A stretch of 50,985 nt of DNA from a virus (taxonomy: Duplodnaviria > Heunggongvirae > Uroviricota > Caudoviricetes), in the IMG/VR virus record IMGVR_UViG_2721755720_000003. One strand, 5' to 3'. Below, in pieces: positions 1 through 50,985 of this stretch. Under the pieces are notes generated by a model, which did no database searches, was not told the DNA's origin, and was given only the letters and a program-made list of their open reading frames with translations. Made by a program: the position numbers and the translations under genes. How positions within the stretch are numbered: position 1 is the stretch's first letter; every line of letters starts with the position of its first letter.

Positions 1-234
1 ATGAAATCAAAAGACACCCTAAAGTGGTTCCCTGCGCAGCTTCCTGAAGTAAGAATTATCCTAGGGGATGCTGTAGTGGAAGTAGCAAAACAGGGAAGAC
101 CTATCAATACCAGAACATTGCTTGATTACATTGAAGGAAACATAAAGAAAAAATCATGGCTGGATAACAAAGAATTATTACAAACAGCGATATCAGTTCT
201 TAAAGACAACCAAAATTTAAATGGTAAAATGTAA
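1..234 (+). CDS. ynaE: YnaE/YdfK-family small prophage protein (77 aa); ATG is at window position 1
   Basis: 77-aa ORF matching my recollection of the Rac YnaE / Qin YdfK cold-shock-associated protein; sits next to pinR as in Rac. Confidence 0.65.
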   Translation: MKSKDTLKWFPAQLPEVRIILGDAVVEVAKQGRPINTRTLLDYIEGNIKKKSWLDNKELLQTAISVLKDNQNLNGKM

Positions 235-550
235 TATAATAAACTTACTTTTTTATCATTTTTCCACTTTAACAACATTTTGCTCCACTTTTCCACGACC
301 AAACAACTTGAAATCTGGTTAAAATAACACGCAACACTATTCTTCTTCCTTGAGTCCGCCCGGAACTCGAAAAACAAACCGAGTTAAAGCCATTTTTCAC
401 AAAATCGATTTTGGGTCTCACCAAAATTACGGGGTTGCATACGCATTCGTTTATTTTCGAACGTGTACATACAAATATGCACAAAAATAATCATAATTAT
501 TTTCTGAGATGCATTATGATATGAACACCAATTTCGTATAGAGTCTCACT

Positions 551-1141
551 ATGTCTCAAATTTTTGCTTACTGTCGGATATCAACGCTGGATCAGACCAC
601 CGAAAATCAACGCCGGGAAATCGAAAGTGCAGGTTTTAAAATCAAACCTCAGCAAATAATCGAAGAACACATTAGTGGCTCAGCAGCAACCAGTGAGCGT
701 CCTGGTTTTAACCGGTTGCTTGCTCGCCTGAAATGTGGTGATCAATTGATTGTGACAAAACTGGATCGCCTTGGTTGTAATGCAATGGATATCAGGAAAA
801 CAGTGGAACAACTGACCGAAACAGGTATCAGAGTGCATTGCTTAGCATTGGGGGGCATTGACCTGACCAGTCCAACAGGAAAAATGATGATGCAAGTAAT
901 TTCAGCAGTCGCTGAATTTGAACGAGACCTTTTACTTGAACGCACTCATTCCGGGATAGTAAGAGCCCGCGGCGCAGGGAAACGTTTTGGTCGACCACCT
1001 GTGTTAAATGAAGAACAGAAACAGGTGGTATTCGAACGAATTAAGTCAGGTGTAAGTATAAGTGCCATTGCCCGGGAATTCAAAACCTCGCGGCAAACCA
1101 TTTTAAGAGCCAAAGCAAAACTTCAGACACCTGACATATAA
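551..1141 (+). CDS. pinR: Serine recombinase (resolvase/invertase family), PinR-like
   Basis: 196 aa; N-terminal catalytic region with the Ser in [10 protein letters not shown]-terminal HTH; position beside tfa/stf. Confidence 0.85.
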
Positions 1142-1238
1142 AAAATAATCTCGGTGTGAGATGCTTTACGTCTTCCAAGCCCCCTTCCTTGCCGTAAATG
1201 GAAAGATACATCTAATTATAGAATTTATATGTTTTACC

Positions 1239-1814
1239 CTACGGCAGTGCTGGCCATTCAATATCCTGTGAAGTTGACGTATCAACACGGTTCAGCAATA
1301 CCCGATACTTTTTCCATGCTTCCAGCAACGAGATTTCTTCCTCCGTTGCAATTTCCAGATCTGCAGCATCCTGAAGCGGCGCAATATGCTCACTGGCTAC
1401 CTGCATCAGGTTGTTTTTTGTTTCTTCCGCCTCCCGGATCCGGAACAGTTTTTCTGCTTCCGTATCCTTCACCCAGGCTGTGCCGTTCCACTTCTGAAAC
1501 TCCCCTTCCGGCGATAACCAGGTAACATTTTCCGGTAACGGACCGAGTTCAGAAATAAATAACGCGTCGCCGGAAGCCACGTCATAAACCGTTTTACCCC
1601 GATGATCTTCAACGAGATGCCACGATGCCTCATCACTGTTGAAAACAGCCACGAAGCCTGCCGGAATATCTGGCGGTGCAATATCGGTACTGTTTGCTGG
1701 CAGACCTGTATGAGGCGGAATATATGCATCACCTTCACCAATAAATTCATTAGTTCCGGCCAGCAGATTATAAATTGTTATGGTCCGTGGTTGTTCACTC
1801 ATTCTGAATACCAT
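1239..1814 (-). CDS. tfaR: Tail fiber assembly protein Tfa
   Basis: 191 aa, near-identical to lambda Tfa as recalled ([12 protein letters not shown]...); ATG overlaps the stf stop (TAATG). Confidence 0.9.
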
Positions 1815-4800
1815 TATGCAAGCCTCACAATATAGTTAAATGCGATGTTTTTGACGGTGTTTTCCGCGTTACCAGCAGCGTTAACGGTGATGGTGTGTCC
1901 ATGTGAACCAATCGCAACGGAGTGCGTATGAGCACCAATACCGACAGTATGCGCGTGTGCACCTGCAGATGCTGCTGTGCCGGACAGTGAGTGGCTATGA
2001 TTACCATCTGTACTGGTATTAGCTAACCACCCCGTAGACATACCTACTGAGCCTTGTACACCCCAGGTATTTTGACCTGAGCTTGTATAACCATATTGAT
2101 AAGTATCTTTAAAAACACTGGGGTTAAATCGACGGCCATCTCTATGGCTGTGATTACCAGCTGCATTCGTGCTGCCACTTAAACTATGGGTATGCGCACC
2201 AGTGTTATTCGTGGATTTAGTGCCGTAATCAAACGACGATGTGGTTTTCGTCCCCAAATCCGTACTGGATGCGCTGGCGCTGTGGGTATGCGATTTAATG
2301 CCGTCCTGTTCCTGAGACAATACGGCCCGACCACTGGCAGGTTTGCCCTTAATCGTCCAGCCACGCATATCAGGGATCACGCCTGACGGATAAGCCGCTG
2401 CAAGTTTCGGGTATGCAGATTTGTCAAAAGTCTGCCCCTGCATCAGGGCATAGCCAGACGGAACGGTATCTGATGGCCACGGGATTGGTGCACCGACTGG
2501 ATAAAACTCTGCAGGAGGATGAGCCGAGGTGTAAAGCTGCGCCCACGGCGACCAGTTTGCGTCGGTCGTATCCCGTCGTGAACGAATAAATGCCGGAGCA
2601 TGAGCACCGCTTGTACCACTCCAGCCGATGAGTAACTCACCTTCGCCAACGGCTGTCATCCCTTTCAGGTGAATGATATTTCCATACGCTGTTGGATATC
2701 CGTTGTTATACACCTCGTATAACTCAAGACCTGTTGCCCCCTGCGTATTGTCTGTCAGCGCGGTTACCCGACCTTTTGAAGACAGATTAACTGATGATAC
2801 TGCTGTTCCACCTGACGGTAATGCCCCGATCTCTGATGCCGTTGGCTTATTTCTGGAGTTATAGTCCCTTCGCCAGCCAGGTGAATAATCTGTTCCGTGA
2901 TTAATATAGGTAAACTGGGCGTTAGTTGTTCCGCCACCAGTGGAGGTAGTCGGTGTGGTAATGCGGATCGTCATCGCTGACTTTATCCCCATTACTTCAA
3001 TGACAGCTCCTGCGAGATGAATATTACCGCAGCCAGTATCAGTAATGATTTTATTATTGCCATAAGACCAGGAACCCTTGCACATCCAGTATGGATGGTT
3101 AAATGCTCCCTGAGAATCCAGCCACTCGATAAACTGTGCAGTCGTCCAGTCTCCTGTTGTTGTGCTTACTGACCCACCGAAGGCACGGCTGGCACCAATA
3201 TTTTTCGTAAAGGTGTCTTTGCCAGGGATATCCGCACCGTTCTTATCTTTCTGCAGACGTTTCTCAGCATTGTCATTGGCTGCTTTTACTGCCTTTGGCG
3301 TTGCTGCCAGCGTTTCAGACGTGCTGTTGGTCGCGCTGCTTAGCTGGACTATCCCTTTCTGTGCTGTCGTTGCATCCTGTGCGGTGTATTTCCCGTCAGC
3401 CAGGTCATACGCGGCCTTAACTGCTTTTGGCGTTGCCGCCAGTGACTCGGAAGTGCTGTTGGTCGCACTGCTGAGCTGTACTATCCCCTTTTTCGTCGTG
3501 CTCGCATCCTCAAGCGCCACGGCGGATGCAATATCCTCTGCCCGTTTTGCCGCTGTCTCAGCGCGCGTTGCCGCGGATTCCGCCGTACTTTTGCTCTGTG
3601 CTGCCGCCGTCGCACTGCCAGCTGCCTCTGTCGCCTTCGTGGATGCTGTCGTGGCGCTGCCCTTCGCTGCTGACGCTTGTCTGGTCGCCTCATCTTTTGA
3701 AGCAGACGCAGATGATGCCGATGACGCCGCCGAACTGGCGGACGATGCGGCAGCCGTTTTTGAGGATTCTGCGCTGGTTTCCGACGCTTTCGCGTTCGTT
3801 TCGGATGTCTTCGCTGCGGAAGCAGACCTCGCTGCTGCTCTGGCCTGTTCAGTGGCTTCGCCAGCCTTCGTTGTGGCTGTTGAAGCAGACGATGCGGCGC
3901 TTTCTGCCGATTTTCCGGCGGCGGTGGCACTGGCTGAGGCCTGCCCGGCACTTGTTGACGCGGCACTGGCAGACGACGCAGCCGCTGTTTTTGAGCCTGC
4001 CGCAGCCGAGGCGCTCTGTCCCGCTGCCGTTTCAGAAGACCTGGCGTTCGTCTCTGACGTTTTTGCCGCCTTCGCGGAATTTCCTGCCGCTGTTGCCGAG
4101 GAAGCTGCGCTACTGGCGCTCGAGGATGCGTTCGTTTCTGATGATTTTGCCGCCTCTTTTGAAGCCGCCGCATCCCGGGCTGAGCTGGCAGCTTCTGACG
4201 CTTTCGTGGTCGCGGTGGATGCAGAAGTGGCTGCTGATTGTTGTGACGCTGCCGCATTCGTTTCTGACGTTTTCGCGGCACTGGCACTGGTAGCTGCCGC
4301 GCTTTTTGAGGACTCTGCAGCGGCAGCACTTTTTGATGCTTCAGTGGCCTTTGTTGATGCCGTTCCTGCGCTGGAAGACGCTGACTGAGCCGACGAAGCG
4401 GCCTGTCCGGCTGACGTGCTGGCTGCGCGTGCTGAGCCTGTAGCATCAGTCGCATGGGTTGCCGCCTCACGGGCAGATGTGCCGGCATCGCCGGCTGACT
4501 TCTTCGCGACTGCCGTGTTCTGTGCCACCACGGACGCGTTACGCGCCACCTCTTCCACCATCAGTTCAAAACGGCGCAGTGCCTCCGGACGGGCATCATC
4601 CTCCGTCATGGCACCGAGAAAATCATTCAGCGTACCGGGTCGGGAATCTTCATACACGGTGATGGTCCCGGCATGTGACGGCGGGAATCCCTCCACCAAC
4701 AGAATAACGCTGTACTGCCCGTACTCAACGTCCATGCTGTAACGCCCGGCTTCATCCGGATTTTCTGAGGCCAGCGTGTTCACCACCACCGTGGTACTGT

Positions 4801-4885
4801 TACGTTTTGCTTTCAGCTGGATTGTGCAGTTCTGTACCGGTTTTCCTGTGCCGTCTTTCAGTACACCTGAAATCTTTACTGCCAT
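1814..4885 (-). CDS. stfR: Side tail fiber protein Stf, with a long Ala/Ser/Thr-rich repetitive central region
   Basis: N-terminus [26 protein letters not shown] matches lambda Stf; C-terminal His-rich GAHxH repeats; ATG at 4885 preferred over the GTG at 4891 in the ORF track. Confidence 0.9.
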
Positions 4886-4949
4886 ATTCACCCCACAAAA
4901 AAGCCCGCCTGAACCGGCGGGCTGTCATAACACTGTGTTACCTGGCTAA

Positions 4950-5549
4950 TCAGAATTTATAACCGACACCCACGATGAAACCGTCAGTGCGCCAGTCGCC
5001 ACTGCCGGAACCTTCATAAGCGACATCAATGGCCACGGACTCGGTCGGGTTAAACTGCACGCCAGCCCCCCACGCCAGAGACGTGTTGCTGTGGCGACCG
5101 TCATCACTTCCGGTCAGCACATCGTGCGTTTTCCCCTTATTGTCAGTTACGCGGAGATAATCCCCGGAGAAAGTCGACACACGGCTGTAAGCCACACCCG
5201 CCATCGCATACGCGCTGAACCATTCATTCACGCGTACAGACGGCCCCGCCATCACGCTGAACCAGCGGTTACGCACGGAATCTTCATACCAGCGGGTATC
5301 GCTGTAACGGGTCAGCTGGCGATTCTTGTCTCCTGCATAGCTGAACGACGTCACCATCCCCAGTGTGTCCGTAAACTCATAACGGTATTTCACGTTAATC
5401 CCGTTAAGATCATCGCTGCCGGGAACGTTCGTCGAGGCATGAAGATACCCCGCGCTCAGCGTGGACTGATGTTCAGATGCCCATGCAGGCGCACCGGATA
5501 CGGCCAGACAAATGGCTGCGGAAAAAATGGCGGCATAAAGTTTACGCAT
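4950..5549 (-). CDS. lom: Lom outer-membrane protein (Ail/Lom family beta-barrel)
   Basis: 199 aa with signal peptide and C-terminal GYKF; lambda lom position between J and stf; intact here. Confidence 0.9.
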   Translation of the reverse strand: MRKLYAAIFSAAICLAVSGAPAWASEHQSTLSAGYLHASTNVPGSDDLNGINVKYRYEFTDTLGMVTSFSYAGDKNRQLTRYSDTRWYEDSVRNRWFSVMAGPSVRVNEWFSAYAMAGVAYSRVSTFSGDYLRVTDNKGKTHDVLTGSDDGRHSNTSLAWGAGVQFNPTESVAIDVAYEGSGSGDWRTDGFIVGVGYKF

Positions 5550-5618
5550 AATTACCTCTCGCTTTTCTGCAATAAAAAAGGCACCATTTCTGGTGCCCTT
5601 ATATGGGTTATAACAATT

Positions 5619-8600
5619 TCAACGAATACTGATGCCGGAAGCGGCTTTTTTGGTCACAATCACCGTACAGTCGGTGATATTGCCTGCCCCCTGATTGCCT
5701 TTCTGGAAAATCTTAAACTCCAGAGTGACGCTACCACCACCACTAGGCATATCAATAACTGCACTGTAACTACCGGGAATGGCCCCTTTAGTTTCTCTGG
5801 ATGCGATTAATACGCCGTTTTTGCGAACTTCAAAACCATAACCCGTGTATCGCGTGCCTCCTGGGTTATTTCCGCTCCCCGGATCGTCATACGCTATACC
5901 GTTAAAAATAATGGGCGGAATAATAATCTGGCGGTCAAAGTTATGATCATCGCTGATGGTGACTGTAACCGTACCGTTTGGTGTTTCCGTGTTACCCCAC
6001 GTACCGACTTTTTTCGGGAAGGCTTTTGATACAGCTTTAACGAAATCCCCTCTGACCTGGGTCGCCTCCAGCATGCCCTTAATCGTACAGTTCTGGTTAA
6101 TCGTGACATTGTTGAGCGTTCCTGAGTTCGCATTCACACTACCACTGATATCCGCATTTTTAGCGGTCAGCTTTCCGTCTGATGTCAGGGAAAATACCGG
6201 AGGACTGCCACCGCTGGTAATGGTGGGGGCTGTCAGGCGCTTCAGGAACACGTCGTTCATGAATATCTGGTTGCCCTGCGCCACAAACATCGGCGTTTCA
6301 TTCCCGTTTGCCGGGTCAATAAACGCGATACGGTTAGCGGCAACCAGAAACTGGCTCAGCTTGCCTTCCTCCGTGTCCTCCATGCTGAGGCCAATACCCG
6401 CGACATAATGTTTGCCGTCTTTGGTCTGCTCAATTTTGACGCCCCACATGGCATTCCATTTATCGTTAGCGTCCTTCCACTCTTTCGAAAACTCATCCAG
6501 TCTGCTGGCGTTATCCTCCGTCAGATCAACTTTTTCCAGCAACTCCTTGCCGAGATGAGATTCGGTTATCTTGCCTTTGAAAAAATCCAGGTAACCTTCC
6601 GCATCATCGCTCGCCCGACCGACAGCCTCCACGAATGCCGATTTGCCAACGGTGTTCACACTGCGAACGTAAAAATAATAATCATGGCCCGGCCTGATAT
6701 TGATACTGGCAGCTATCCAGTACAGCGCCGTGCCAAGATAGCGGGCTGTGGTTTCAACCTGCCTGATATCAGCAATCCGTTTTTCCGAGAACCAGAACTC
6801 AAACTGTACCGTCGGGTCATAAACCGCAAGATGCGGCGTGGCGGTTATCTGAAAATAGCCCGGTGTCAGCTCAATCCGAGACGGCGCTGCCGGTGCGGCA
6901 ATCCGGAACGATACCGATGCCGGATCGCCCTGCTGTCCCCACGCATTTACCACCCGGACTGTCAGCCTGTAGTTCCCCAGCGCCAGTTGCGTGAAGCGGT
7001 ATGTGGTTTCCGTCGTCCGGGCCGTGCTGACCAGCCGCTCACTGCCGTCATCCGCGGCCACGGTCAGGCGAAGCATAAAGCTCACCCCCTTCACCACCTT
7101 CGGCGTATCCCAGCGCGCCAGCACCTGGTATTCCCCACTGTCTGCGGTGACTTCTGCGGTCAGGTGCTGCACCGCTGGCGGCGTGACACCATTCACCGTG
7201 CCGCTCTGGTCGCCGTCAAAGTGCGCCCCGTTATCCACGATAGCTTCTTTTTCCGGTACATGCTGCACGGCGGTGATGGCATACGTGCCGTCGTCGTTCT
7301 CACGGATACTCACGCAGCGGAACAGGCGCTGGCGCAGCGTCGGCAGCTTCAGCCCCCACACGCTGTATTCAGCAACGCCGTCAGGAACACGGCTCACTTT
7401 CACCTTCACGCCGTCGGTGACGGACTGAACCTCCACGCTGACCGGATTGCCACTTCCGTCAACCAGGCTTATCAGCGTGGTACCGGAGGATGGCAGCGTG
7501 ATTTCACGGTCGAGCGTCAGCGTCCGGGTCTGGCTGTTCACAGCCAGCACGCGCCCGCCGATGCTGATCCCCGCATAGTCATCATCGCAGATTTCAATAA
7601 CATCACCCGGCACATGGCGAAGCCCTTCTGCGCCCACGCTGAAGTCCACGGTCTGCGTTTCCAGCAGCTCCGTTTTAATCAGCCACAGCCCGGCGCGGTG
7701 TGCCTGCCCCCGGCTGGTACAGCCAAAGGCGTCCATCTTCGTGACGTTACGACCGTAACGGAGAATGGCCGGCGTGTCCTCCACAAGCTCTGTCGCCGTC
7801 TCCCAGCCGTTATCCGGGTCAATCCAGTTCACCTCAACGGCATTATGGCGGTCCTTCAGGGCGCTGAAGCTGTAGCGGAACGGCGCGCCATCATCCGGCA
7901 TCACCACATTACTGCGGTTATAGGTCCACACCTTATCCGACGGTCGGTCCTGCACAAACGTCAGCGTCTGCCCGTTCCATACCGGCATACAGCGCATCGC
8001 CGAGCAGAAATCACTGAGCACATCCCACGCCTTACGCTGTGTGGTCAGGTACGCATTACAGGTGATGCGCGGCTCCGTGCCGCCAAAGCCGTCCGGCACT
8101 GACTGGTCGCAGTACTGGCCGATGACATACAGCGCCCATTTATCCACATCCGCCGCACCAAGACGTTTCCCCATGCCGTAGCGCGGATGGGTCAGCATAT
8201 CCCACAGACACCAGGCCATGTTGTTGCTGTATGCCGGTTTAAACGTTCCGTCCCAGATACCGCTGTATTGCCGCGTCTGCGGGTTATAGTTCGACGGCAC
8301 CTGCAGAATACGCCCGCGCAGATGATAATTACGGCTCACCTGCTGGCTGCCGAACTGCTCCGAATCCACCTGCACGCCGACCAGTGCCGTGTTCGGGTAG
8401 CACTGTTTCACATCGATGATTTCGGTGTATGACGACCAGAGCGTTTTGTTCTGCAGCTGGTCTGTGGTGCTGTCCGGCGTCATCCTGCGCATCCGGATAT
8501 TGAACGGGCGCGGCGGCAGGTTACCCACCACCACCGATGCCAGATACTGTGAGGTGGTTTTGCCTTTAATGGTGATGTCTTTTTCCGTCACCCAGCCACC

Positions 8601-9032
8601 GTTACGCTGTATCTGAACCAGCAGGCGGACTTCCGACGGATTCCGGTCCCCCTTTGAGGTGGTTTCCACCAGTGCCTGCACACCGAAGGTAAAGCGCAGA
8701 CGGTCGATGTTTGCCGACGTGATGGTCCGGGTAATCGGCGTGTCGTACTTCACTTCCGTACCCAGCACCGTCTCGGAGCCGGAGGATTCAAATCCCTCCG
8801 GCGGTGTCTGCTCCTGCTCACCTGCCCGGAAAACCACCGTGACACCGGAGATATTGGTATTCCCCTCACTGTCCAGCACCGGCGTACTGTTCAGCAGCAC
8901 ACTTTTTAATCCGTCCACCGGACCTTCAACCGGCCCTTCACTGATGGCGTCTATCACGCTCAGCATCTGGGATGATTTCAGGTTGTCCTTCGCTTCGCGC
9001 GGGGTATGCCCCTTACTGCTGCCTTTACCCAT
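5619..9032 (-). CDS. J: Tail tip / host specificity protein J (central tail fiber)
   Basis: 1137 aa; N-terminal ~980 aa near-identical to lambda J as recalled; C-terminal ~150 aa diverged. Confidence 0.9.
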
Positions 9033-9092
9033 TCCTCACGCTCCATAAACGACAAAACCGCCCGGAGGCGGTTTCACATAAAACGTTTTTCA

Positions 9093-9740
9093 TCAGCGAC
9101 CAATCACCACAACCTGACCACCATCCCCTTCGTCTGCCGTGCTGATCTCCTGAGAGACCACCCGCGACCCCACGCGCATTTCACCGTACAGAACGGGCAG
9201 AACATTGCCCTGGGCAACCATGTTATCCAGTGACGAGAAATACGTGTTCTGTTTGCCGTTATCTGTACTGGCTGCCGTGGGCGTCCTGGCTTTCGGTGCC
9301 AACATCTGCGCCACACCGCCCAGGATCATACTGGCCCCTGCCGCATACATACCCGATACAGCCGTGGCCCCCAGCCAGCCCACAGGGTTCCACCATGCAA
9401 CCGCAATCAGCGCCGCCCCCAGCACTGCCTGAAAAATACCGCCACTTTTAGCACCCGCCGGACGCGGTACGATGTGGATCACGGCACCATTTTCCAGCGG
9501 CTCATTAAGACGGGCAGACAATTCAGTTTCACCTGCATCACGCCCGGCAATGCGTACCTGGTACCAGCCGTCGCTCAGTTTCTGACGAAATGCCGGGATC
9601 TGCATGGCCAGCGCCCGGATGGCTTCGGACCCCGTTTTCACTCGAAGGTCGATGCGGCGGCCAAATCGTTGTAAATCCCCGTAAAGGCAGATGCGTGCCA
9701 TGCCCGGTGACGCCAGAGGGAGTGTGTGCGTCGCTGCCAT
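9093..9740 (-). CDS. I: Tail assembly protein I
   Basis: 215 aa; N-terminal MAATHTLPLASPGMARICLYGDLQRFGRR matches lambda gpI; overlaps the 3' end of K. Confidence 0.85.
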   Translation of the reverse strand: MAATHTLPLASPGMARICLYGDLQRFGRRIDLRVKTGSEAIRALAMQIPAFRQKLSDGWYQVRIAGRDAGETELSARLNEPLENGAVIHIVPRPAGAKSGGIFQAVLGAALIAVAWWNPVGWLGATAVSGMYAAGASMILGGVAQMLAPKARTPTAASTDNGKQNTYFSSLDNMVAQGNVLPVLYGEMRVGSRVVSQEISTADEGDGGQVVVIGR

Positions 9741-10381: not shown

Positions 10382-10386
10382 GGGAT

Positions 10387-35589: not shown

Positions 35590-35609
35590 AACACACCCAC
35601 AAATAAATC

Positions 35610-35629: not shown

Positions 35630-35643
35630 GATTTATATAGTTG

Positions 35644-40439: not shown

Positions 40440-40461
40440 TAAATTTTTCTCCCGGTAAAAA

Positions 40462-41214: not shown

Positions 41215-42003
41215 TTACCCCCTGAAGCCTGGCGGGATCGCACTATCCGGTAACGAGACGGTGTTAACCTGTCGGAGTAACGTCTCAGGTCGAACACCTT
41301 TTGGCGCGAACAAGCCCTGGTATTCATTGGCGATGCTGTGTCGAATCACCTGCTCAGGTGAAAAACCCTGCTGGCGGAATTTTTCCAGCTCCCGTATCGC
41401 CCCGTTAGCGCCCTGCTCCGTTCGAATCGGTTTTCGCAATGCCTGCCTGAACTGAACCCACTCATGCCAGAGTGTTTCCGGCAACCAGTCAGGCAGCTCG
41501 ATAGCCTCCGGTTCGAATTTTTTAGACGCTCGTTTTTGGCGAGGGGGATTTAGGGGGAGATAAGTATTTATATCTTCCTCTTTCTCTTCCTCTGGTAACG
41601 CTTTTTGATCCGTTTTTGTAACGCTGGCAGCGTTACCTTTTCGTTTCAGTTCTCGTATTTTTGTTACTCTCTCGTTTGTAACCGCCCGTTTTTTAGAGCT
41701 TTTCCCGTTATGGCGCTCAAAGTTAGGAAGCGACAACACACCATTAGTTTCGACCAGCCATCCAACCTGAATTAACGCATCAGCAAAACCAGCCATAAAA
41801 GTGATGCGATCTATTGCACTTTTTGTAACGCCGCGAGCGTTACACTCTGCGTTACCGTCTATCATTTGTTGATCCGCCCATGCCCAGAAGCGAATGACTT
41901 TCCCTAATGCGGCATCTGGATCAATATTCAGAATCTCAGCAAGCCTGAATATTTCCGGCTTATCCGGCGTAATAACTTCGAGCTTTATCCAGTTTGAAGC
42001 CAT
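41215..42003 (-). CDS. ydaU: Replication initiation protein (YdaU-like, O-analog)
   Basis: 262 aa immediately upstream of the DnaC-like gene; contains palindromic repeats in its DNA. Confidence 0.65.
   Translation of the reverse strand: MASNWIKLEVITPDKPEIFRLAEILNIDPDAALGKVIRFWAWADQQMIDGNAECNARGVTKSAIDRITFMAGFADALIQVGWLVETNGVLSLPNFERHNGKSSKKRAVTNERVTKIRELKRKGNAASVTKTDQKALPEEEKEEDINTYLPLNPPRQKRASKKFEPEAIELPDWLPETLWHEWVQFRQALRKPIRTEQGANGAIRELEKFRQQGFSPEQVIRHSIANEYQGLFAPKGVRPETLLRQVNTVSLPDSAIPPGFRG
41618..41637. repeat. Palindrome TGTAACGC-N5-GCGTTAC (copy 1, inside ydaU)
   Basis: Perfect 7-bp arms; one of three copies spaced ~200 bp apart. Confidence 0.6.
41824..41844. repeat. Palindrome TGTAACGC-N5-GCGTTACA (copy 2, inside ydaU)
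   Basis: Perfect 7-bp arms; extra GCGTTACC half-site 5 bp downstream. Confidence 0.6.
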
Positions 42004-42080: not shown

Positions 42081-42503
42081 TCAATGCACTACGACAGAAT
42101 CGCTAGGAGAACCGCCGCCGCTGAAATGTGCTTTACGGTAAACGGCCTGGACTGCATCATCATGCGCATCAATTGCCGTACTCAGTGCATCCTGTGCCGC
42201 CAGTAATGCACGGCGTTCCAGGGTATCGAAGATGCAGAGTCGGTGACGCAGCTCGCGAGGAAGAATTGCCAGAACCGCAGGGATCAGTTTCTGAATTTTT
42301 TCCCTTTGCGCATTCGTTTCACCTTTCAACCAACGATGATAGATATTCTGCTGATTGTTCCAGTCCTTGCCTGGTACCAGGGGCAATTCGCCGCCCCCCT
42401 GGCGCAGATATTCTTCAGTAATTGCGTTAGCGACCCACGCCTGCCCTTTTTCGGCTGCCAGGGCTAACAACACTGATTCGATGTGCTCATGCTTGATTTT
42501 CAT
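42081..42503 (-). CDS. ydaT: YdaT-like protein (reported toxic product of the Rac immunity region)
   Basis: 140 aa; directly downstream of the Cro-like gene, same operon. Confidence 0.65.
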   Translation of the reverse strand: MKIKHEHIESVLLALAAEKGQAWVANAITEEYLRQGGGELPLVPGKDWNNQQNIYHRWLKGETNAQREKIQKLIPAVLAILPRELRHRLCIFDTLERRALLAAQDALSTAIDAHDDAVQAVYRKAHFSGGGSPSDSVVVH

Positions 42504-42754
42504 GAATCAACTCCCATCAGCTTTTTCGTAGTAGTTTTATTTCTGCCAATAGTTAAAATTGCATCGGCAGAAAATAATCCGTTTGATGCATGAGCGATTT
42601 TTTCAGCGTAATTTGTTTCGCCGGTATATTCTGTGCGAGGCAATTTTCCGTTATCCATCCATTTGTAGATTGCTCTTTGGCTGACACCACAAACGTCGGC
42701 CACAACAGAAACGCGAACAGTTTTGATTACATCTTCAAGTGTTTTCTGGTTCAT
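42500..42754 (-). CDS. ydaS: Cro-like HTH regulator (YdaS-like)
   Basis: 84 aa from the ATG at 42754 (GAGGGTG RBS); HTH VADVCGVSQRAIYKW; divergent from the repressor gene. Confidence 0.7.
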   Translation of the reverse strand: MNQKTLEDVIKTVRVSVVADVCGVSQRAIYKWMDNGKLPRTEYTGETNYAEKIAHASNGLFSADAILTIGRNKTTTKKLMGVDS

Positions 42755-42833
42755 ATCACCCTCACAATGTGAACTTTGAGTACATGCTATAACAGAACTG
42801 ACAGTACATTCAAGAGCGAATATCATTGAACTT
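42755..42833. promoter_or_regulatory. Divergent promoter/operator region between racR and ydaS (OR-like)
   Basis: 79-bp gap between divergent starts; two AGTACAT repeats at 42779-42785 and 42803-42809. Confidence 0.5.
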
Positions 42834-43253
42834 ATGGTTCATGAAGATAAAGCGCGTAAAGAGTTCGCCAGTAGGCTTGCGCTAGCCTGTGAAAACGCTG
42901 GTTATGAACAACATGGAAGGCAGGCAGAAATTGCCCGTCGAATGAAATTAACACCAAAAGCGGTTAGCAAATGGTTTAATGGTGAAACAATTCCTCGCCG
43001 AGAGAAATTAAGGGAATTAGCAACACTCATTGGAACAACACCAACCTATCTTTTGGGAGAGGATACAGAAGAAAGTGGACAGATACGTTTCTATCAGGAG
43101 TTAAATCCAAGACAAAAAATCATCATTGACCTTCTGGACGAGCTCCCTGACAGTGAGACAGATGAACTTTTAAAAACTCTTGAGGAGAAAAAACAGAAGT
43201 ACAATGCAATTTACGAAGAGTTAGCACGAAAGAAAAAACAAAAAGCCTCTTAA
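42834..43253 (+). CDS. racR: XRE-family HTH repressor (cI-analog, RacR-like)
   Basis: 139 aa; HTH in AEIARRMKLTPKAVSKWFNGE; divergent to the cro-like gene. Confidence 0.6.
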   Translation: MVHEDKARKEFASRLALACENAGYEQHGRQAEIARRMKLTPKAVSKWFNGETIPRREKLRELATLIGTTPTYLLGEDTEESGQIRFYQELNPRQKIIIDLLDELPDSETDELLKTLEEKKQKYNAIYEELARKKKQKAS

Positions 43254-43372: not shown

Positions 43373-43539
43373 ATACCTACCAACCCACCCCGCCCCACAG
43401 AACGCCGGGCAATACTTCGAGTTACCAGGCAGTGGTCAGGGGTTAAGTAGCCAGCCCGAGGCGTATGAACATGACGGCGGGATTCAAATTTTGCAGTGCA
43501 GCAGTTAGTTCCGCCACCCGGCGTTAAGGGGATAGATAA

Positions 43540-43674
43540 GATGGTGCATTACGAAGTAGTTCAGTATTTGATGGATTGTTGCGGTATCACTTACAACCAG
43601 GCTGTGCAGGCTTTACGCAGCAACGACTGGGATCTCTGGCAGGCAGAAGTCGCTATACGTAGCAACAAGATGTG
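43540..43674 (+). CDS. ydaG: YdaG-like small protein (44 aa)
   Basis: AAGGGG RBS; MVHYEVVQYLMDCCGITYNQ…; below the ORF-track cutoff. Confidence 0.55.
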
Positions 43675-43685
43675 AGATTCGCAAA

Positions 43686-43841
43686 ATGCAAAAAATCGAC
43701 CTCGGCAACAACGAATCCCTGGTGTGCGGCGTGTTCCCCAACCAGGATGGAACGTTCACTGCCATGACGTATACCAAAAGCAAAACATTTAAAACCGAAA
43801 CTGGTGCGCGCCGATGGTTGGAGAAGCACACAGTAAGCTAA
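43686..43841 (+). CDS. ydaF: YdaF-like small protein (51 aa)
   Basis: ORF MQKIDLGNNESLVCGVFPNQDG… directly after ydaG. Confidence 0.55.
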   Translation: MQKIDLGNNESLVCGVFPNQDGTFTAMTYTKSKTFKTETGARRWLEKHTVS

Positions 43842-44326
43842 CGATTAAAACGTCTACTCCTGCTGTTCCAGAATAACTTCATAAAATGGGAGTATTTTTC
43901 GGTGACGAGATAATAAGAACAGTTTGCGCTATCACTCTGATGTTGAATGATGCCCTTCCGTTCTAATTTTTTCATAACCGGGTTACGGCAAGGAGAAGTG
44001 ATAATAAGATTTCCTGTTTTAAGGAAATCTTTAAATACAGCGATTTCTTTCTCAGATAAACGAAGCAATACTCGTTGCTCTGGCAGTAATGAATAATGCT
44101 TTTGAATATGTGCTCGCAATCTTGAGAAGGAAATGGCGACCACGAAAGAAAAGGCAAAAACGATAATCTGAAAGAGCCAAGGTATTTCAGTATAAGCATT
44201 GAATGCGACAGTAAACTCTTTCGGTATCAGCCAGAGAGTGAGACCAAAAATGATAATCGTATACATAAGTCTTTCGAGTGGCTCGTTAGCAAAAAGTTTC
44301 AACAATGGAGTAAATACATCCAACAT
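43838..44326 (-). CDS. sieB: Superinfection exclusion protein SieB
   Basis: 162 aa from MLDVFTPLLKLFANEPLERL…; membrane segments. Confidence 0.85.
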   Translation of the reverse strand: MLDVFTPLLKLFANEPLERLMYTIIIFGLTLWLIPKEFTVAFNAYTEIPWLFQIIVFAFSFVVAISFSRLRAHIQKHYSLLPEQRVLLRLSEKEIAVFKDFLKTGNLIITSPCRNPVMKKLERKGIIQHQSDSANCSYYLVTEKYSHFMKLFWNSRSRRFNR

Positions 44327-44767: not shown

Positions 44768-44989
44768 ATGATTGCACATCACTTCGGAACTGATGAAATA
44801 CCACGTCAGTGTGTGACTCCTGGCGATTATGTTCTTCATGAAGGCCGGACATATATTGCCTCGGCAAACAATATTAAAAAGCGAAAACTATATATTCGTA
44901 ACCTGACCACAAAAACATGCATTACTGACCGCATGATTAAAGTCTTCCTCGGTCGTAATGGTTTACCTGTAAAGGCGGAGTCATGGTGA
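44768..44989 (+). CDS. kilR: KilR, FtsZ-targeting cell division inhibitor
   Basis: 73 aa [26 protein letters not shown]…. Confidence 0.85.
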
Positions 44990-45159
44990 TGACTAAGAAA
45001 ATAAAATGTGCTTACCACCTTTGCAAAAAAGACGTTGAAGAAAGCAAAGCTATTGAAAGAATGCTTCACTTCATGCACGGGATTTTATCAAAAGACGAAC
45101 CGAGAAAATATTGCAGTGAAGCTTGTGCCGAAAAAGACCAGATGGCACATGAACTTTAA
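44989..45159 (+). CDS. ydaE: YdaE-like small Cys-rich protein
   Basis: 56 aa [14 protein letters not shown]…CSEAC…; start overlaps the kilR stop. Confidence 0.55.
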   Translation: MTKKIKCAYHLCKKDVEESKAIERMLHFMHGILSKDEPRKYCSEACAEKDQMAHEL

Positions 45160-45233: not shown

Positions 45234-45509
45234 ATGATTACCAATTATGAAGCCACTGTTGTAACTACCGATGACATTGTTCACGAGGTGAATCTGGAAG
45301 GAAAGCGCATTGGCTACGTAATTAAAACAGAAAATAAAGAAACCCCATTCACTGTGGTTGATATCGATGGTCCATCAGGCAACGTAAAAACACTTGATGA
45401 AGGTGTCAAAAAAATGAGCCTGGTGCATATCGGAAAGAATCTGCCCGCAGAAAAAAAAGCCGAATTTCTGGCAACTCTAATTGCAATGAAATTAAAAGGT
45501 GAAATCTGA
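45234..45509 (+). CDS. racC: RacC-like protein
   Basis: 91 aa from MITNYEATVV… with an AAGGAG RBS; immediately upstream of recE. Confidence 0.55.
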   Translation: MITNYEATVVTTDDIVHEVNLEGKRIGYVIKTENKETPFTVVDIDGPSGNVKTLDEGVKKMSLVHIGKNLPAEKKAEFLATLIAMKLKGEI

Positions 45510-45610: not shown

Positions 45611-48211
45611 ATGAGCACAAAACCACTCTTCCTGTTACGGAAAGCGAAAAAATCATCCGGTGAACCTGACGTCGTCCTGTGGGCAAGCAACGATTTTGAA
45701 TCGACCTGTGCCACTCTGGACTACCTGATCGTTAAGTCAGGTAAAAAACTGAGCAGCTATTTTAAAGCTGTTGCCACGAATTTTCCTGTCGTTAATGACC
45801 TGCCCGCTGAAGGTGAGATCGATTTTACCTGGAGTGAACGCTATCAACTCAGCAAAGACTCCATGACATGGGAACTAAAACCGGGAGCAGCACCAGACAA
45901 CGCTCACTATCAAGGCAATACCAACGTCAACGGCGAAGACATGACTGAGATTGAGGAGAATATGCTACTCCCAATTTCTGGCCAGGAACTGCCCATTCGT
46001 TGGCTTGCTCAACACGGCAGCGAAAAACCGGTAACGCACGTTTCACGCGACGGACTCCAGGCATTACACATTGCTCGGGCTGAAGAACTACCGGCTGTTA
46101 CTGCCCTGGCTGTTTCCCACAAAACCAGCCTGCTCGACCCGCTGGAAATTCGCGAACTCCACAAACTGGTTCGTGACACTGACAAAGTTTTCCCTAATCC
46201 TGGTAATTCAAACCTGGGACTGATAACTGCTTTTTTCGAAGCATACCTGAACGCTGACTACACCGATCGAGGACTGCTGACAAAAGAGTGGATGAAGGGT
46301 AATCGTGTTTCACACATCACTCGCACGGCTTCCGGTGCTAATGCTGGCGGCGGAAACCTCACCGATCGCGGCGAAGGTTTCGTACACGATCTGACGTCAC
46401 TGGCGCGCGACGTAGCCACTGGCGTACTGGCCCGTTCAATGGATCTGGACATCTATAACCTTCATCCGGCACACGCTAAACGCATTGAGGAAATTATCGC
46501 TGAAAATAAACCGCCCTTTTCTGTTTTCCGCGACAAATTCATCACCATGCCTGGCGGGCTGGATTATTCCCGCGCCATCGTGGTTGCGTCCGTAAAAGAA
46601 GCACCAATTGGGATCGAGGTCATCCCCGCGCACGTCACTGAATATCTGAACAAAGTACTGACTGAAACCGATCATGCCAACCCTGATCCGGAAATCGTGG
46701 ATATTGCCTGCGGTCGCTCCTCTGCCCCGATGCCGCAGCGAGTAACAGAAGAAGGAAAACAGGATGATGAAGAAAAACCGCAACCATCTGGAACAACGGC
46801 AGTTGAACAGGGAGAGGCTGAAACAATGGAACCGGACGCAACTGAACATCATCAGGACACGCAGCCGCTGGATGCTCAGTCACAGGTAAATTCTGTTGAT
46901 GCGAAATATCAGGAACTGCGGGCAGAACTCCATGAAGCCCGGAAAAACATTCCATCAAAAAATCCTGTCGATGCCGATAAATTGCTTGCTGCATCACGTG
47001 GTGAATTTGTTGACGGAATTAGCGACCCGAACGATCCGAAATGGGTAAAGGGGATCCAGACTCGCGATTGTGTGTACCAGAACCAGCCAGAAACGGAAAA
47101 AACCAGCCCAGATATGAATCAACCTGAGCCAGTAGTGCAACAGGAACCGGAAATAGCCTGCAATGCCTGCGGCCAGACTGGCGGGGATAACTGCCCTGAC
47201 TGTGGTGCGGTGATGGGCGACGCAACATACCAGGAAACATTCGCTGAAGAGAGTCAGGTTGAAGCTAAGGAAAATGATCCGGAGGAAATGGAAGGCGCTG
47301 AACATCCGCACAATGAGAATGCTGGCAGCGATCCGCATCGCGATTGCAGTGATGAAACTGGCGAAGTCGCAGATCCCGTAATCGTAGAAGACATAGAGCC
47401 AGGTATTTATTACGGAATTTCGAATGAGAATTACCACGCGGGTCCCGGTATCAGTAAGTCTCAGCTCGATGACATTGCTGATACTCCGGCACTATATTTG
47501 TGGCGTAAAAATGCCCCCGTGGACACCACAAAGACAAAAACGCTCGATTTAGGAACTGCTTTCCACTGCCGGGTACTTGAACCGGAAGAATTCAGTAACC
47601 GCTTTATCGTAGCACCTGAATTTAACCGCCGTACAAACGCCGGAAAAGAAGAAGAGAAAGCGTTTCTGATGGAATGCGCAAGCACAGGAAAAACGGTTAT
47701 CACTGCGGAAGAAGGCCGGAAAATTGAACTCATGTATCAAAGCGTTATGGCTTTGCCGCTGGGGCAATGGCTTGTTGAAAGCGCCGGACACGCTGAATCA
47801 TCAATTTACTGGGAAGATCCTGAAACAGGAATTTTGTGTCGGTGCCGTCCGGACAAAATTATCCCTGAATTTCACTGGATCATGGACGTGAAAACTACGG
47901 CGGATATTCAACGATTCAAAACCGATTATTACGACTACCGCTATCACGTTCAGGATGCATTCTACAGTGACGGTTATGAAGCACAGTTTGGAGTGCAGCC
48001 AACTTTCGTTTTTCTGGTTGCCAGCACAACTATTGAATGCGGACGTTATCCGGTTGAAATTTTCATGATGGGCGAAGAAGCAAAACTGGCAGGTCAACAG
48101 GAATATCACCGCAATCTGCGAACCCTGTCTGACTGCCTGAATACCGATGAATGGCCAGCTATTAAGACATTATCACTGCCCCGCTGGGCTAAGGAATATG
48201 CAAATGACTAA
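45611..48211 (+). CDS. recE: Exodeoxyribonuclease VIII (RecE)
   Basis: 866 aa; essentially identical over its length to E. coli RecE as recalled. Confidence 0.95.
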
Positions 48212-49013
48212 GCAACCACCAATCGCAAAAGCCGATCTGCAAAAAACTCAGGGAAATCGTGCACCAGCAGCAGTTAAAAATAGCGACGTGATTAGTTTTA
48301 TTAACCAGCCATCAATGAAAGAGCAACTGGCAGCAGCTCTTCCACGCCATATGACGGCTGAACGTATGATCCGTATCGCCACCACAGAAATTCGTAAAGT
48401 TCCGGCGTTAGGAAACTGTGACACTATGAGTTTTGTCAGTGCGATCGTACAGTGTTCACAGCTCGGACTTGAGCCAGGTAGCGCCCTCGGTCATGCATAT
48501 TTACTGCCTTTTGGTAATAAAAACGAAAAGAGCGGTAAAAAGAACGTTCAGCTAATCATTGGCTATCGCGGCATGATTGATCTGGCTCGCCGTTCTGGTC
48601 AAATCGCCAGCCTGTCAGCCCGTGTTGTCCGTGAAGGTGACGAGTTTAGCTTCGAATTTGGCCTTGATGAAAAGTTAATACACCGCCCGGGAGAAAACGA
48701 AGATGCCCCGGTTACCCACGTCTATGCTGTCGCAAGACTGAAAGACGGAGGTACTCAGTTTGAAGTTATGACGCGCAAACAGATTGAGCTGGTGCGCAGC
48801 CTGAGTAAAGCTGGTAATAACGGGCCGTGGGTAACTCACTGGGAAGAAATGGCAAAGAAAACGGCTATTCGTCGCCTGTTCAAATATTTGCCCGTATCAA
48901 TTGAGATCCAGCGTGCAGTATCAATGGATGAAAAGGAACCACTGACAATCGATCCTGCAGATTCCTCTGTATTAACCGGGGAATACAGTGTAATCGATAA
49001 TTCAGAGGAATAA
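48204..49013 (+). CDS. recT: RecT single-strand annealing recombinase
   Basis: 269 aa from [12 protein letters not shown]…; ATG overlaps the recE stop (ATGACTAA). Confidence 0.95.
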
Positions 49014-49072
49014 TTCAGCCTGGCGGTGTAATGCACCGCCAACTTGAAATATTTTTTATGAGAAAAATTATG

Positions 49073-49264
49073 AGATATGACAATGTTAAACCATGTCCAT
49101 TTTGTGGTTGTCCATCAGTAACGGTGAAAGCCATTTCAGGATATTACCGAGCGAAGTGTAACGGATGCGAATCCCGAACCGGTTATGGTGGAAGTGAAAA
49201 AGAAGCACTCGAAAGATGGAATAAACGAACCACTGGAAATAATAATGGAGGTGTTCATGTATAA
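49073..49264 (+). CDS. ralR: RalR / Lar restriction-alleviation protein (type I TA toxin, DNase)
   Basis: 64 aa MRYDNVKPCPFCGCPSVTV… with Cys4 cluster. Confidence 0.85.
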   Translation, partial: RYDNVKPCPFCGCPSVTVKAISGYYRAKCNGCESRTGYGGSEKEALERWNKRTTGNNNGGVHV

Positions 49265-49454
49265 AATTACCGCCACTATTGAAAAGGAAGGTGGCACTCC
49301 TACTAACTGGACAAGATATTCAAAATCTAAACTAACGAAATCAGAATGCGAAAAAATGCTCTCAGGTAAAATTTCCAGAGAGCAGAAAGTAAAACTGATA
49401 AATTTTAATTGCGAGAAACTTCAGTCCTCGAGAATTGCATTGTATTCAAATTAA
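49257..49454 (+). CDS. ydaC: YdaC-like small protein
   Basis: 65 aa from MYKITATIEKEGG…; overlaps the ralR stop. Confidence 0.55.
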   Translation: MYKITATIEKEGGTPTNWTRYSKSKLTKSECEKMLSGKISREQKVKLINFNCEKLQSSRIALYSN

Positions 49455-49532
49455 AACTTCATAGCTGATTATTAATAATCAACATCGGGCGTCAATTTCA
49501 GTCTAACATTGGCGCCTGCCAGAGGTGATGCG

Positions 49533-49748
49533 ATGGCACAAGTAATCTTTAATGAAGAGTGGATGGTTGAATACGGCCTGATGCTTCGCACTGGTCTGGG
49601 GGCCAGACAAATTGAAGCATACCGCCAGAACTGTTGGGTGGAGGGCTTCCACTTCAAACGAGTATCTCCTTTAGGTAAGCCAGACAGCAAACGAGGGATT
49701 ATCTGGTACAACTATCCAAAGATAAATCAGTTTATCAAAGACTCATGA
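49533..49748 (+). CDS. xisR: Excisionase-like protein (XisR / YdaQ)
   Basis: 71 aa from [15 protein letters not shown]…; immediately upstream of int. Confidence 0.7.
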
Positions 49749-49749
49749 T

Positions 49750-50985
49750 ATGTCTAAATTACCAACAGGTGTCGAGATTAGAGGTAGATACATTCGCATC
49801 TGGTTCATGTTTCGAGGAAAACGATGTCGGGAAACATTAAAAGGCTGGGAGATTACAAACAGTAATATTAAAAAGGCCGGAAATTTAAGAGCGCTGATAG
49901 TTCATGAAATAAACTCCGGTGAATTTGAGTATTTAAGACGTTTTCCCCAGTCCAGCACTGGGGCAAAAATGGTGACAACGAGAGTCATAAAAACGTTCGG
50001 AGAGCTTTGTGATATCTGGACAAAAATTAAAGAGACAGAGTTAACAACAAACACAATGAAGAAAACGAAATCACAATTAAAAACACTCAGAATAATAATT
50101 TGTGAAAGTACCCCGATATCACATATTCGTTATAGCGATATCTTAAACTACCGGAATGAACTGCTGCATGGAGAAACGCTTTACCTGGATAATCCAAGAT
50201 CCAACAAAAAAGGAAGAACCGTGCGCACAGTTGATAACTATATCGCCCTGCTCTGTTCGCTGTTGCGTTTTGCGTATCAGTCGGGATTTATATCAACCAA
50301 ACCATTTGAAGGAGTAAAAAAATTACAGCGAAACAGAATAAAGCCTGATCCGTTATCTAAAACAGAATTCAATGCATTAATGGAAAGTGAAAAAGGACAG
50401 AGCCAGAACTTGTGGAAATTTGCCGTTTACTCAGGACTTCGTCACGGGGAACTGGCAGCTCTGGCGTGGGAGGATGTGGATCTCGAAAAGGGAATAGTGA
50501 ATGTCAGAAGAAACCTGACGATACTTGATATGTTCGGTCCCCCAAAAACAAATGCCGGGATCCGAACAGTAACACTACTGCAGCCTGCTCTTGAAGCACT
50601 GAAGGAGCAATACAAACTGACCGGGCATCATCGCAAAAGCGAAATCACCTTTTATCATCGGGAGTACGGCAGAACCGAAAAGCAAAAACTGCATTTTGTT
50701 TTCATGCCCAGGGTGTGTAACGGAAAACAAAAACCTTATTACTCGGTAAGCAGTTTGGGGGCAAGGTGGAATGCAGCAGTAAAACGTGCTGGTATTCGCC
50801 GCCGTAATCCGTACCATACGCGGCATACTTTTGCCTGCTGGCTGTTGACGGCAGGAGCGAACCCGGCATTTATAGCCAGCCAAATGGGGCATGAAACTGC
50901 GCAGATGGTGTATGAAATTTACGGTATGTGGATTGATGACATGAACGACGAACAGATAGCCATGTTGAATGCGCGGTTATCGTAG
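49750..50985 (+). CDS. intR: Tyrosine integrase IntR
   Basis: 411 aa, complete to the stop at the window end; C-terminal catalytic region with …HTRHTFA…Y. Confidence 0.9.
   Translation: MSKLPTGVEIRGRYIRIWFMFRGKRCRETLKGWEITNSNIKKAGNLRALIVHEINSGEFEYLRRFPQSSTGAKMVTTRVIKTFGELCDIWTKIKETELTTNTMKKTKSQLKTLRIIICESTPISHIRYSDILNYRNELLHGETLYLDNPRSNKKGRTVRTVDNYIALLCSLLRFAYQSGFISTKPFEGVKKLQRNRIKPDPLSKTEFNALMESEKGQSQNLWKFAVYSGLRHGELAALAWEDVDLEKGIVNVRRNLTILDMFGPPKTNAGIRTVTLLQPALEALKEQYKLTGHHRKSEITFYHREYGRTEKQKLHFVFMPRVCNGKQKPYYSVSSLGARWNAAVKRAGIRRRNPYHTRHTFACWLLTAGANPAFIASQMGHETAQMVYEIYGMWIDDMNDEQIAMLNARLS

Follow-up and report, generated by a model that had tools for sequence, protein, structure and literature searches.

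A full-length Rac-family prophage, probably complete apart from an IS2 insertion in its tail assembly chaperone gene

Rac, a cryptic prophage found in Escherichia coli K-12, is a remnant, and a viral genome that carries Rac genes side by side with head, tail and lysis genes raises the question of whether it is a whole phage of the Rac family and how it relates to that remnant. The genome in question is IMG/VR record IMGVR_UViG_2721755720_000003, a stretch of 50,985 nucleotides (nt) that we refer to as the window and whose positions are used throughout unless another locus is named. It spans exactly from the start of ynaE (position 1) to the stop codon of intR (position 50985). The genes at the 2 ends, ynaE/ydfK (1-234) and intR (49750-50985), lie on the plus strand, while the minus strand holds most of the genes between them, so that the map is inverted relative to K-12. 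We consider it likely, with a probability of roughly 0.85, that the window is the complete genome of a temperate lambdoid siphovirus of the Rac family whose only lesion is an insertion sequence (IS), IS2, in the tail assembly chaperone gene G/GT, that it is tail-defective and non-infectious, and that K-12 Rac is a decayed heteroimmune relative. The identity and integrity of the prophage were computed, and the life cycle proposed below would follow from homology and gene order.

A preliminary description of this DNA had called it a near-complete Rac-type prophage, and whole-element alignment to K-12 Rac (NC_000913.3, positions 1411899-1434958) bears this out. The IntR-type tyrosine integrase and the XisR excisionase (49533-49748, plus strand) are both 100% identical in amino acids (aa) to their K-12 counterparts. 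The early-left operon ralR-recT-recE-racC-ydaE-kilR is present together with sieB, at 99.7% nt identity over 7.6 kb and 97-100% identity of its proteins; the alignment from intR through the ydaG region (50985-43378) is 99.7% identical as a whole. This segment holds, on the plus strand, recE (45611-48211) and recT (48204-49013), whose products are 100% identical to those of K-12, the ralR toxin gene with rcbA (49070-49454, identified by comparison with K-12 proteins), and kilR (44768-44989), ydaE (44989-45159), racC (45234-45509), a ydaG-region open reading frame (ORF; 43496-43675) and ydaF (43686-43841), which like sieB on the minus strand (43838-44326) encode proteins 97-100% identical to those of K-12. 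The antisense RalA RNA was found on the minus strand at 49263-49429 (Rfam, 180.8 bits). The late remnants of K-12 Rac (rzoR, trkG, ynaK, ydaY, ynaA, lomR, stfR, tfaR, pinR, and ynaE) all have counterparts in the window in the same order, at 93-100% identity. At the DNA level the 3' end of Rz, rzoR, trkG and the ynaK stub are 99.7% identical to K-12, ydaY/ynaA 98.7%, and lom, the ends of stfR, tfaR, pinR, and ynaE 95.9-99.2%.

The segments that separate these blocks account for what K-12 has lost. The preliminary description proposed that the window retains the morphogenesis and late-control segments missing from K-12 Rac, and the alignment confirms this as 3 deletions in K-12, each a single junction. 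The first (30800-39989; 9.2 kb), where K-12 jumps from 39990 to 30799, covers late control and lysis and removed the rest of ydaW, the DUF977 gene, IetAS, DUF1367, YbcO, the Q-like gene, the TolA-like genes, holin, endolysin, and the 5' end of Rz. The second (16809-28368; 11.6 kb; K-12 jumps from 28369 to 16808) covers the head and tail shaft and took the 3' part of the ParB gene, the TAGT gene, the terminases, all head genes, the connectors, the tube gene, and the 5' end of G. The third (5346-13714; 8.4 kb; K-12 jumps from 13715 to 5345) covers the tail tip and removed most of the tape measure gene, M, L, K, I, J, and the 5' end of lom. The same 3 junctions were recovered using a second full-length relative, vB_EcoS-683R6, and together they provide an exact map of the K-12 Rac losses. 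One deletion endpoint lies 114 bp from the site of IS2 in the window; we took this to be coincidental, as K-12 lacks IS2 at that point and the deletion does not stop at an IS end.

All 58 defined coding sequences (CDS) of the window are open, with no stop or frameshift besides the IS2 lesion, in agreement with the earlier view that IS2 in G is the only obvious one. IS2 (15364-16694, plus strand, 1331 bp, its ends read from the sequence) carries open transposase ORFs at 15410-15820 and 15778-16683 and belongs to the IS3 family; related copies are annotated as "IS3-like element IS2 family transposase". It is bounded by a 5-bp target duplication, GTTTC, at 15359-15363 and 16695-16699, and a 5-bp overlap is also seen in the K-12 alignment. 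The interrupted gene lies on the minus strand between the tube and tape measure genes, the expected position for a G/GT chaperone. Its 5' fragment of about 70 codons (16695-16906) begins at an ATG at 16906 with GAGG 6 nt upstream and matches PHROG_313, and its 3' fragment (15121-15363) corresponds to ydaY. When rejoined, the 2 fragments encode a protein of 149-153 aa that matches PHROG_313, "tail assembly chaperone", with E=8e-47. Near the stop codon of G is a slippery heptamer, A AAA AAG (15127-15133), and the -1 frame is open for about 104 codons, to 14813, providing a T-frame extension (14813-15133, minus strand; PHROG_1189) as in a chaperone gene with a programmed -1 frameshift. Without IS2 and one copy of GTTTC the window is 49,649 bp long.

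The insertion appears to be recent and private to the strain, cutting G at about codon 71. According to work by Xu, Hendrix and Duda, both G and GT are reportedly required for assembly of the lambda tail. The insertion abolishes G as well as its frameshift product GT, and tail assembly should fail; IS2 also lies antisense to the late operon and may therefore exert a polar effect on the tape measure and tip genes. The phage would still be expected to excise, replicate, package its DNA, and lyse the cell, with tails not assembled and the particles consequently non-infectious. Induction of the source strain should then kill and lyse the cells and may release DNA-filled heads, with no infectious phage.

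The rest of the late region is that of a complete phage. The preliminary description credited the element with a full head module, lambda-like tail genes, and the mosaic ancestry typical of lambdoid phages, and each of these points is upheld by the domain and protein comparisons. All of the following genes are on the minus strand. The head module is complete and consists of an intact terminase small subunit of 364 aa (TerS; 25621-26715, Pfam Terminase_2), the terminase large subunit (TerL; 24339-25640, Pfam Terminase_6N/6C), a DUF4055 portal (22930-24336; Pfam E=1e-44, 69% aa identity to phage HK639), a MuF-like minor head protein (21834-22946; Pfam, 50% to HK639), a DUF6651 protein in the position of a scaffold (20965-21729; Pfam, 66%), and a major capsid protein of the P22-coat type (19727-20866; Pfam, 75%). 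These are followed by a 58-aa protein (19508-19684), the adaptor Ad1 (19109-19504), and the head closure protein Hc1 (18726-19109), the connector set being covered by PHROGs 169, 161, 493, and 1514, and by a neck/tail completion protein (18345-18725), the tail terminator (17956-18348), and the tail tube (16967-17929), identified by Pfam Phage_tail_terminator_5 and Phage_tube_2 and by PHROGs. Beyond G/GT lie the tape measure gene (11416-14649; 1077 aa; Pfam TMP_2, TMP_4, and Tape_meas_lam_C), of whose product K-12 ynaA encodes the N-terminal 29%, and then M (11085-11423; Phage_min_tail, 42% aa identity to lambda), L (10387-11085; Phage_tail_L, 94%), K (9638-10381; JAB and NlpC/P60, 96%), I (9093-9740; Lambda_tail_I, 78%), and J (5619-9032; Pfam J domains, 88%).

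Downstream of J, lom (4950-5549, minus strand) encodes an intact outer-membrane protein matching Pfam Ail_Lom over its full length (E=1e-118). In K-12 it is split by IS5 into 2 lomR fragments, which are 97.2% and 95.9% identical to it in nucleotides. It is followed on the same strand by the side tail fibre gene, an stfR allele of 1023 aa (1814-4885) that is 88% identical to K-12 StfR over its N-terminal 55%, matches K-12 DNA again at its C-terminal end and is diverged in its centre, and by the tail fibre assembly gene tfaR (1239-1814; 97% aa identity to K-12 TfaR, 94% to lambda Tfa). An Rfam match to IS009 (220.9 bits) was observed inside tfaR at 1273-1471 on the minus strand. The element ends, distal to int, with the serine recombinase gene pinR (551-1141, plus strand; 99% aa identity to K-12 PinR) and ynaE/ydfK, which encodes a small cold-shock-type protein 99% identical to K-12 YnaE and is annotated as ydfK in the copy of strain CEC15. 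The preliminary description had matched trkG, lom, stfR, tfaR, pinR, and ynaE to K-12; at 95.9-99.7% nt identity this holds for all but stfR, whose centre does not match.

Terminase, adaptor, head-closure, tail terminator, and tube proteins showed no match to HK639 or lambda. With an HK639-like head, a lambda-like tail tip, and a terminase and tail shaft that match neither, the late operon combines at least 3 ancestries. TerL is 43% identical to TerL of Jersey-type Salmonella phages, and from this homology, and from it only, packaging would be predicted to be of the headful type.

A Q-like gene and a complete lysis cassette are also present, as earlier claimed, all on the minus strand. The candidate antiterminator (33799-34341; 180 aa) is a DUF1133 protein that scores 26.1 bits against PF06530 Phage_antitermQ, just passing the cutoff of 26. 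A search of Protein Data Bank sequences with the single protein matched only Q21, at E=0.27, while a profile of 22 sequences of its family reached E=2.7e-5 against the structures 6JNX and 6P18 of the Q21 antiterminator. Several sources call its relatives antiterminators or late gene regulators. The position of the gene fits Q21-type late control, in which Q lies just upstream of the late leader and lysis genes, and the family and profile matches favour the Q-like assignment of the preliminary description. An AlphaFold model from the 22-sequence alignment reached a mean predicted local distance difference test score of 55.8, too poor for a fold search. Upstream of the gene are those for YbcO (34338-34628) and DUF1367 (34628-35227), both identified by Pfam, and downstream lies an RNA of the STnc100 family (32865-33051; Rfam 79.8 bits, gathering score 47). 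The lysis cassette is of the phage 21 pinholin/SAR-endolysin type according to Pfam and the translations: an intact S21-type pinholin with the dual start MKSM (31313-31528; Phage_holin_2_1), a SAR endolysin with an N-terminal SAR helix (30816-31313; Phage_lysozyme), Rz (30355-30819; Phage_lysis), and an embedded Rz1 (30414-30599) with the lipobox VVGC. We propose that the Q21-family antiterminator would turn on a single long minus-strand late operon, which would supply the pinholin, SAR endolysin, and Rz/Rz1, the headful-type terminase, the HK639-like head, the tail shaft of the third ancestry, and the lambda-like tip and fibres.

The relationship to K-12 Rac is one of siblings rather than of whole and part. 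The preliminary description had treated the K-12 content as contained in the element, and this does not hold: only 81.8% of the K-12 Rac span can be aligned to the window, so that K-12 Rac is not a strict subset of it. The unaligned K-12 content is made up of allelic replacements in the immunity region (1,059 bp), the 5' part of ydaU (498 bp), and the centre of stfR (1,286 bp), along with IS5 (1,195 bp). Accordingly, the reported match of the early genes from intR to racR and from ydaS to ydaV stands for intR through ydaG, ydaT, the 3' part of ydaU, and ydaV, and fails for racR, ydaS, and the N-terminal half of YdaU. No DNA in the window matches positions 8720-9778 (racR and ydaS) and 10206-10703 (the 5' part of ydaU) of the K-12 locus, and K-12-type immunity by RacR and YdaS is absent. 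The ydaT gene is 92.5% identical in nucleotides to that of K-12, and ydaV together with the adjoining 3' part of ydaU and 5' part of ydaW is 96.4% identical.

In place of the K-12 genes, the window has a prophage repressor of 139 aa with an HTH_3 domain (42834-43253, plus strand), which is DicA-like (NF007257 DicA, 56 bits, below the model cutoff) and shares with RacR only a 33-residue helix-turn-helix stretch. The divergent gene (42500-42754, minus strand) encodes a Cro-like helix-turn-helix protein that matches PHROG_35 and is unrelated to YdaS, with no significant similarity in protein comparison. A repeat search found 3 operator-like repeats of 17 bp, TGAACTnnnnGTnCATG, between the 2 genes (42770-42843), and a switch is predicted in which the DicA-like repressor and the Cro-like protein would act on these operators. 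The CII-like ydaT (42081-42503, minus strand; 94% aa identity to K-12) follows the Cro-like gene. The O-like replication initiator (41215-42003, minus strand; Pfam, PHROG_2509) resembles YdaU only in its C-terminal 124 residues (81% identity), its N-terminal half being unrelated, and is followed by the DnaC-like loader gene ydaV (40462-41208), whose product is 98% identical to K-12 YdaV, and by genes for YdaW (DUF1627; 39678-40439) and a DUF977 protein (39231-39662), both assigned by Pfam and all on the minus strand. IntR and XisR would be expected to excise the element, and the O-like initiator and YdaV to replicate it.

We surveyed the distribution of these regions in 5,426 complete E. coli genomes. 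The immunity region of the window type is found in 1,045 of them and in phage Tritos (98%), and is about 70% identical in nucleotides to the cro-cI region of HK022/HK75. Immunity differs among members of the Rac family, with DicA/DicC in MN652886 and RacR in vB_EcoS-683R6, and since it varies in this way, we treat RacR/YdaS as strain-specific and not as defining the family. Full-length relatives of Rac therefore need not have RacR/YdaS immunity, and results on the essentiality of RacR in K-12 are not transferable to this allele. The window element is best described as a heteroimmune sibling of the K-12 Rac progenitor. A prophage of the 683R6 type, which retains the K-12-type racR-ydaS-ydaU together with a full head module, is the better model of that progenitor.

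By megablast, at least 80% of positions 1-25000, which hold the tail genes and the greater part of the head module, is present in 331 of the 5,426 genomes, and at least 80% of positions 25001-50000 in 125. The closest copies are those of strains CEC15 (NZ_CP133657.1), M1/M3 (NZ_CP010180/3.1), and MIN6 (NZ_CP069692.1), none of which has IS2 in G; the junction of IS2 and G is shared by none of the 5,426 genomes. IS2 aside, deposited copies differ from the window by just 2-4 bases. Compared with the window minus IS2, the CEC15 copy has 2 single-nucleotide polymorphisms (SNPs), one of which changes TGG to a stop codon in TerS where the window codon is intact, and the M3 copy has 3 SNPs and one 1-bp indel, a frameshift in the M3 O-like gene that is intact in the window. 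The MIN6 copy is colinear and apparently intact, with 71 substitutions and no indel. Of these substitutions, 66 lie inside J (compared against positions 6000-8999), and this concentration suggests a recombination patch between MIN6 and the window in the gene for the receptor-binding tail tip.

Several annotations by PGAP were considered as further lesions and rejected. The "internal stop" in TerS is real in CEC15 and is not present in the window. In MIN6, the ParB gene is flagged as a partial "ynaK" pseudogene (27090-27347) and a TolA-like gene as partial (31051-31311; both in the positions of that locus), yet the DNA is identical to the intact CDS of the window, CEC15, and M3, and the truncated K-12 reference seems to have misled the annotation into these "pseudo" flags. 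Strain c1-17 bears the same flags (16677-16934 in its own locus); the base-by-base comparison covered MIN6 only.

The copies also locate the element in the chromosome. In CEC15, M3, and MIN6, intR lies directly against the 5' end of ttcA, with ynaM-uspF-ompN facing the opposite end of the prophage, and the CEC15 copy is flanked by a 43-bp attachment (att) repeat, at ttcA and ttcC. The preliminary description placed the att sites beyond the right edge of the window; one does lie there, and the other lies beyond the left edge. A short motif, TTTGCCCC, is repeated close to each of the 2 att regions in CEC15 (locus positions 6100-6140 and 2820-2870), and its copies may be candidate arm-type binding sites for the integrase.

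How far can the single lesion be trusted, and is it decisive? E. coli carries multiple copies of IS2, and assemblies can misplace repeats of this kind, so that the real prophage might be intact and the insertion an artefact of assembly, and the absence of the junction from all the complete genomes would fit such an error. We regard this as extremely unlikely, since both ends of IS2 are complete, the GTTTC duplication is perfect, and excising IS2 with one duplicate restores the uninterrupted sequence of M3, CEC15, and MIN6; this is the signature of real transposition. A prophage with several hidden inactivating changes besides IS2, that is, an old and fully cryptic remnant like K-12 Rac, would be in keeping with the private lesions of near-identical copies, which suggest that the family decays readily. 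It is a very unlikely description of the window, in which every CDS is open and the allele is intact wherever CEC15 or M3 is damaged. The colinearity of the MIN6 copy without any indel also speaks against it, and the handful of SNPs between copies points instead to recent spread as a phage.

It is also possible to suppose that the prophage is still infectious because a co-resident lambdoid prophage supplies G/GT or recombines in the tail module. The tail-tip genes, at 78-96% identity to lambda, would be exchangeable with other lambdoid prophages, and a preprint (10.64898/2026.05.27.728231) reports that the structural modules of KingRac, a Rac-like prophage discussed below, often recombine with those of other prophages. 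The G-like chaperone, however, belongs to the non-lambda tail-shaft module, for which tblastn gave no match to lambda or HK639. Since chaperones act with their own tape measure and tube, cross-complementation is improbable, and the window is silent on other prophages in the strain; we therefore think rescue of this kind very unlikely. What weighs against our own reading of a complete phage genome disabled by IS2 is of a different nature. Its integrity was read from the sequence alone, which is blind to missense defects, and the att sites lie beyond the window, so that integration at ttcA is deduced from the near-identical copies. The repressor has no S24 cleavage domain, a point that bears on the route of induction. 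The assignment of Q combines a borderline Pfam score with a profile match at E=2.7e-5, the AlphaFold model being of too low quality for a comparison of folds, and the functional evidence obtained with KingRac applies to the family and not to the element in the window.

The lesions of the other strains raise a broader possibility. They were collected from copies with at least 99.4% nt identity over window positions 1-25000, a sample biased to matches with extra alignment pieces. In the positions of each locus, they comprise the TerS nonsense codon in CEC15 (27736-28830), the frameshift in the O-like gene of M3 (39954-40741), an IS2 in the endolysin gene of c1-17 (19128-20961), an IS110-family element in the tape measure gene of KCJ3K291 (9016-13537), an IS5 in the side fibre gene of 4114 (1814-5951), and an IS3-family element in J of L725 (5620-10294). 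On the basis of a different private knock-out in each near-identical copy, we tentatively suggest that the window may catch the first step of a "grounding" that an active Rac-type phage undergoes repeatedly, possibly under selection, the same path having ended in the K-12 remnant. If this were true, grounding would keep the lysis genes, IetAS defence, and cargo genes while infectivity is lost.

These cargo and defence genes lie on the minus strand. An IetS subtilase (35644-37908) and the adjacent IetA AAA ATPase (37883-39037) give full-length matches in PADLOC (E=9e-302 and E=9e-143) and are supported by Pfam, as an IetAS system composed of an AAA ATPase and an S8 peptidase. The pair is located with the replication genes on one side and the nin-like/Q region on the other, and was absent from the preliminary description; some relatives have a cytosine methyltransferase and an ATP-dependent nuclease in its place. 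Two genes just upstream of the terminase were also missed there. They encode a glycosyltransferase of the TET-associated (TAGT) family (26906-27838; Pfam PF20691 E=8e-35; "GREB1-related" in PGAP) and a protein with a ParB_N/Srx domain (27831-28622; Pfam PF02195), of which K-12 ynaK is an N-terminal stub, the match covering 34% of the protein. No TET or methyltransferase gene is nearby, and a literature search found no paper on the pairing of ParB and TAGT in phages; the pair could modify DNA or protein. Two proteins with a TolA C-terminal domain (31780-32154 and 32326-32754; Pfam TolA E=1e-14 and 2e-23; NCBIfam), likewise overlooked before, are encoded between the Q-like and holin genes, a classic position for morons. 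The potassium transporter gene trkG (28760-30217) is cargo as well, and its product is 100% identical to K-12 TrkG. ARAGORN found no tRNA genes in the window.

Full-length prophages of the Rac family are common in E. coli and have been described before; only the IS2 allele is private to the window. Full-size Rac-like prophages include Sp10 and CP-933R in O157:H7 (PMC4632033) and the LT-II toxin phages, among them Rac-SA53 (PMC5917428; KU052037). KingRac is an active Rac-like prophage of 46,834 bp at ttcA in a mouse commensal E. coli (PMC6731689). It produces particles, integrates into K-12 at ttcA as a lysogen, takes the place of Rac in K-12 within the mouse gut, and transduces the DNA beside it (PMC6731689, PMC12251178), the transduction being consistent with headful packaging (PMC12251178). 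Like the window element, KingRac is a full-size Rac-related lambdoid prophage that has ydaV; it lies at ttcA, the probable site of the window element too, and is not blocked by K-12 Rac. It differs in its size, 46.8 kb compared with about 50.5 kb from att to att for the window element, and in that it has been shown to make particles and establish lysogeny.

In vB_EcoS-683R6 (ON470595.1), the head, lysis, IetAS, Q-like, trkG, and ParB/TAGT genes are 90-100% identical in amino acids to those of the window. It differs in retaining the K-12-type racR-ydaS-ydaU and in having tRNA-Thr and tRNA-Gly downstream of Q where the window has the TolA-like genes. The record is a partial genome with about 14 kb of host chromosome (1-14278; abgABT through ttcA) next to intR; it is a prophage region called by prediction or else flanking DNA that was packaged, and not a clean phage genome.

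Among the lambdoid phages, HK639 resembles the window in its head, with portal, coat, DUF6651, and MuF proteins 50-75% identical and in the same gene order, and lambda in its tail tip (78-96% for L, K, J, and I), Tfa, and Rz/Rz1 (92-93%). The tape measure shares no more than about 28% identity with that of either phage, and the early region is unrelated to both. The closest likeness is to K-12 Rac itself, with which the window shares identical integrase, excisionase, RalR, RecET, SieB, and YdaE-YdaF proteins, RcbA, RacC, KilR, and ydaG-region proteins at 93-99% aa identity, the genes ydaT, ydaV, trkG, Rz1, tfaR, pinR, and ynaE, and a colinear gene order throughout. In the window, unrelated alleles take the place of racR, ydaS, and the part of ydaU that encodes the N-terminal half, and stfR has a different centre; K-12 Rac has its 3 deletions and an IS5 in lom, and the window has IS2 in G.

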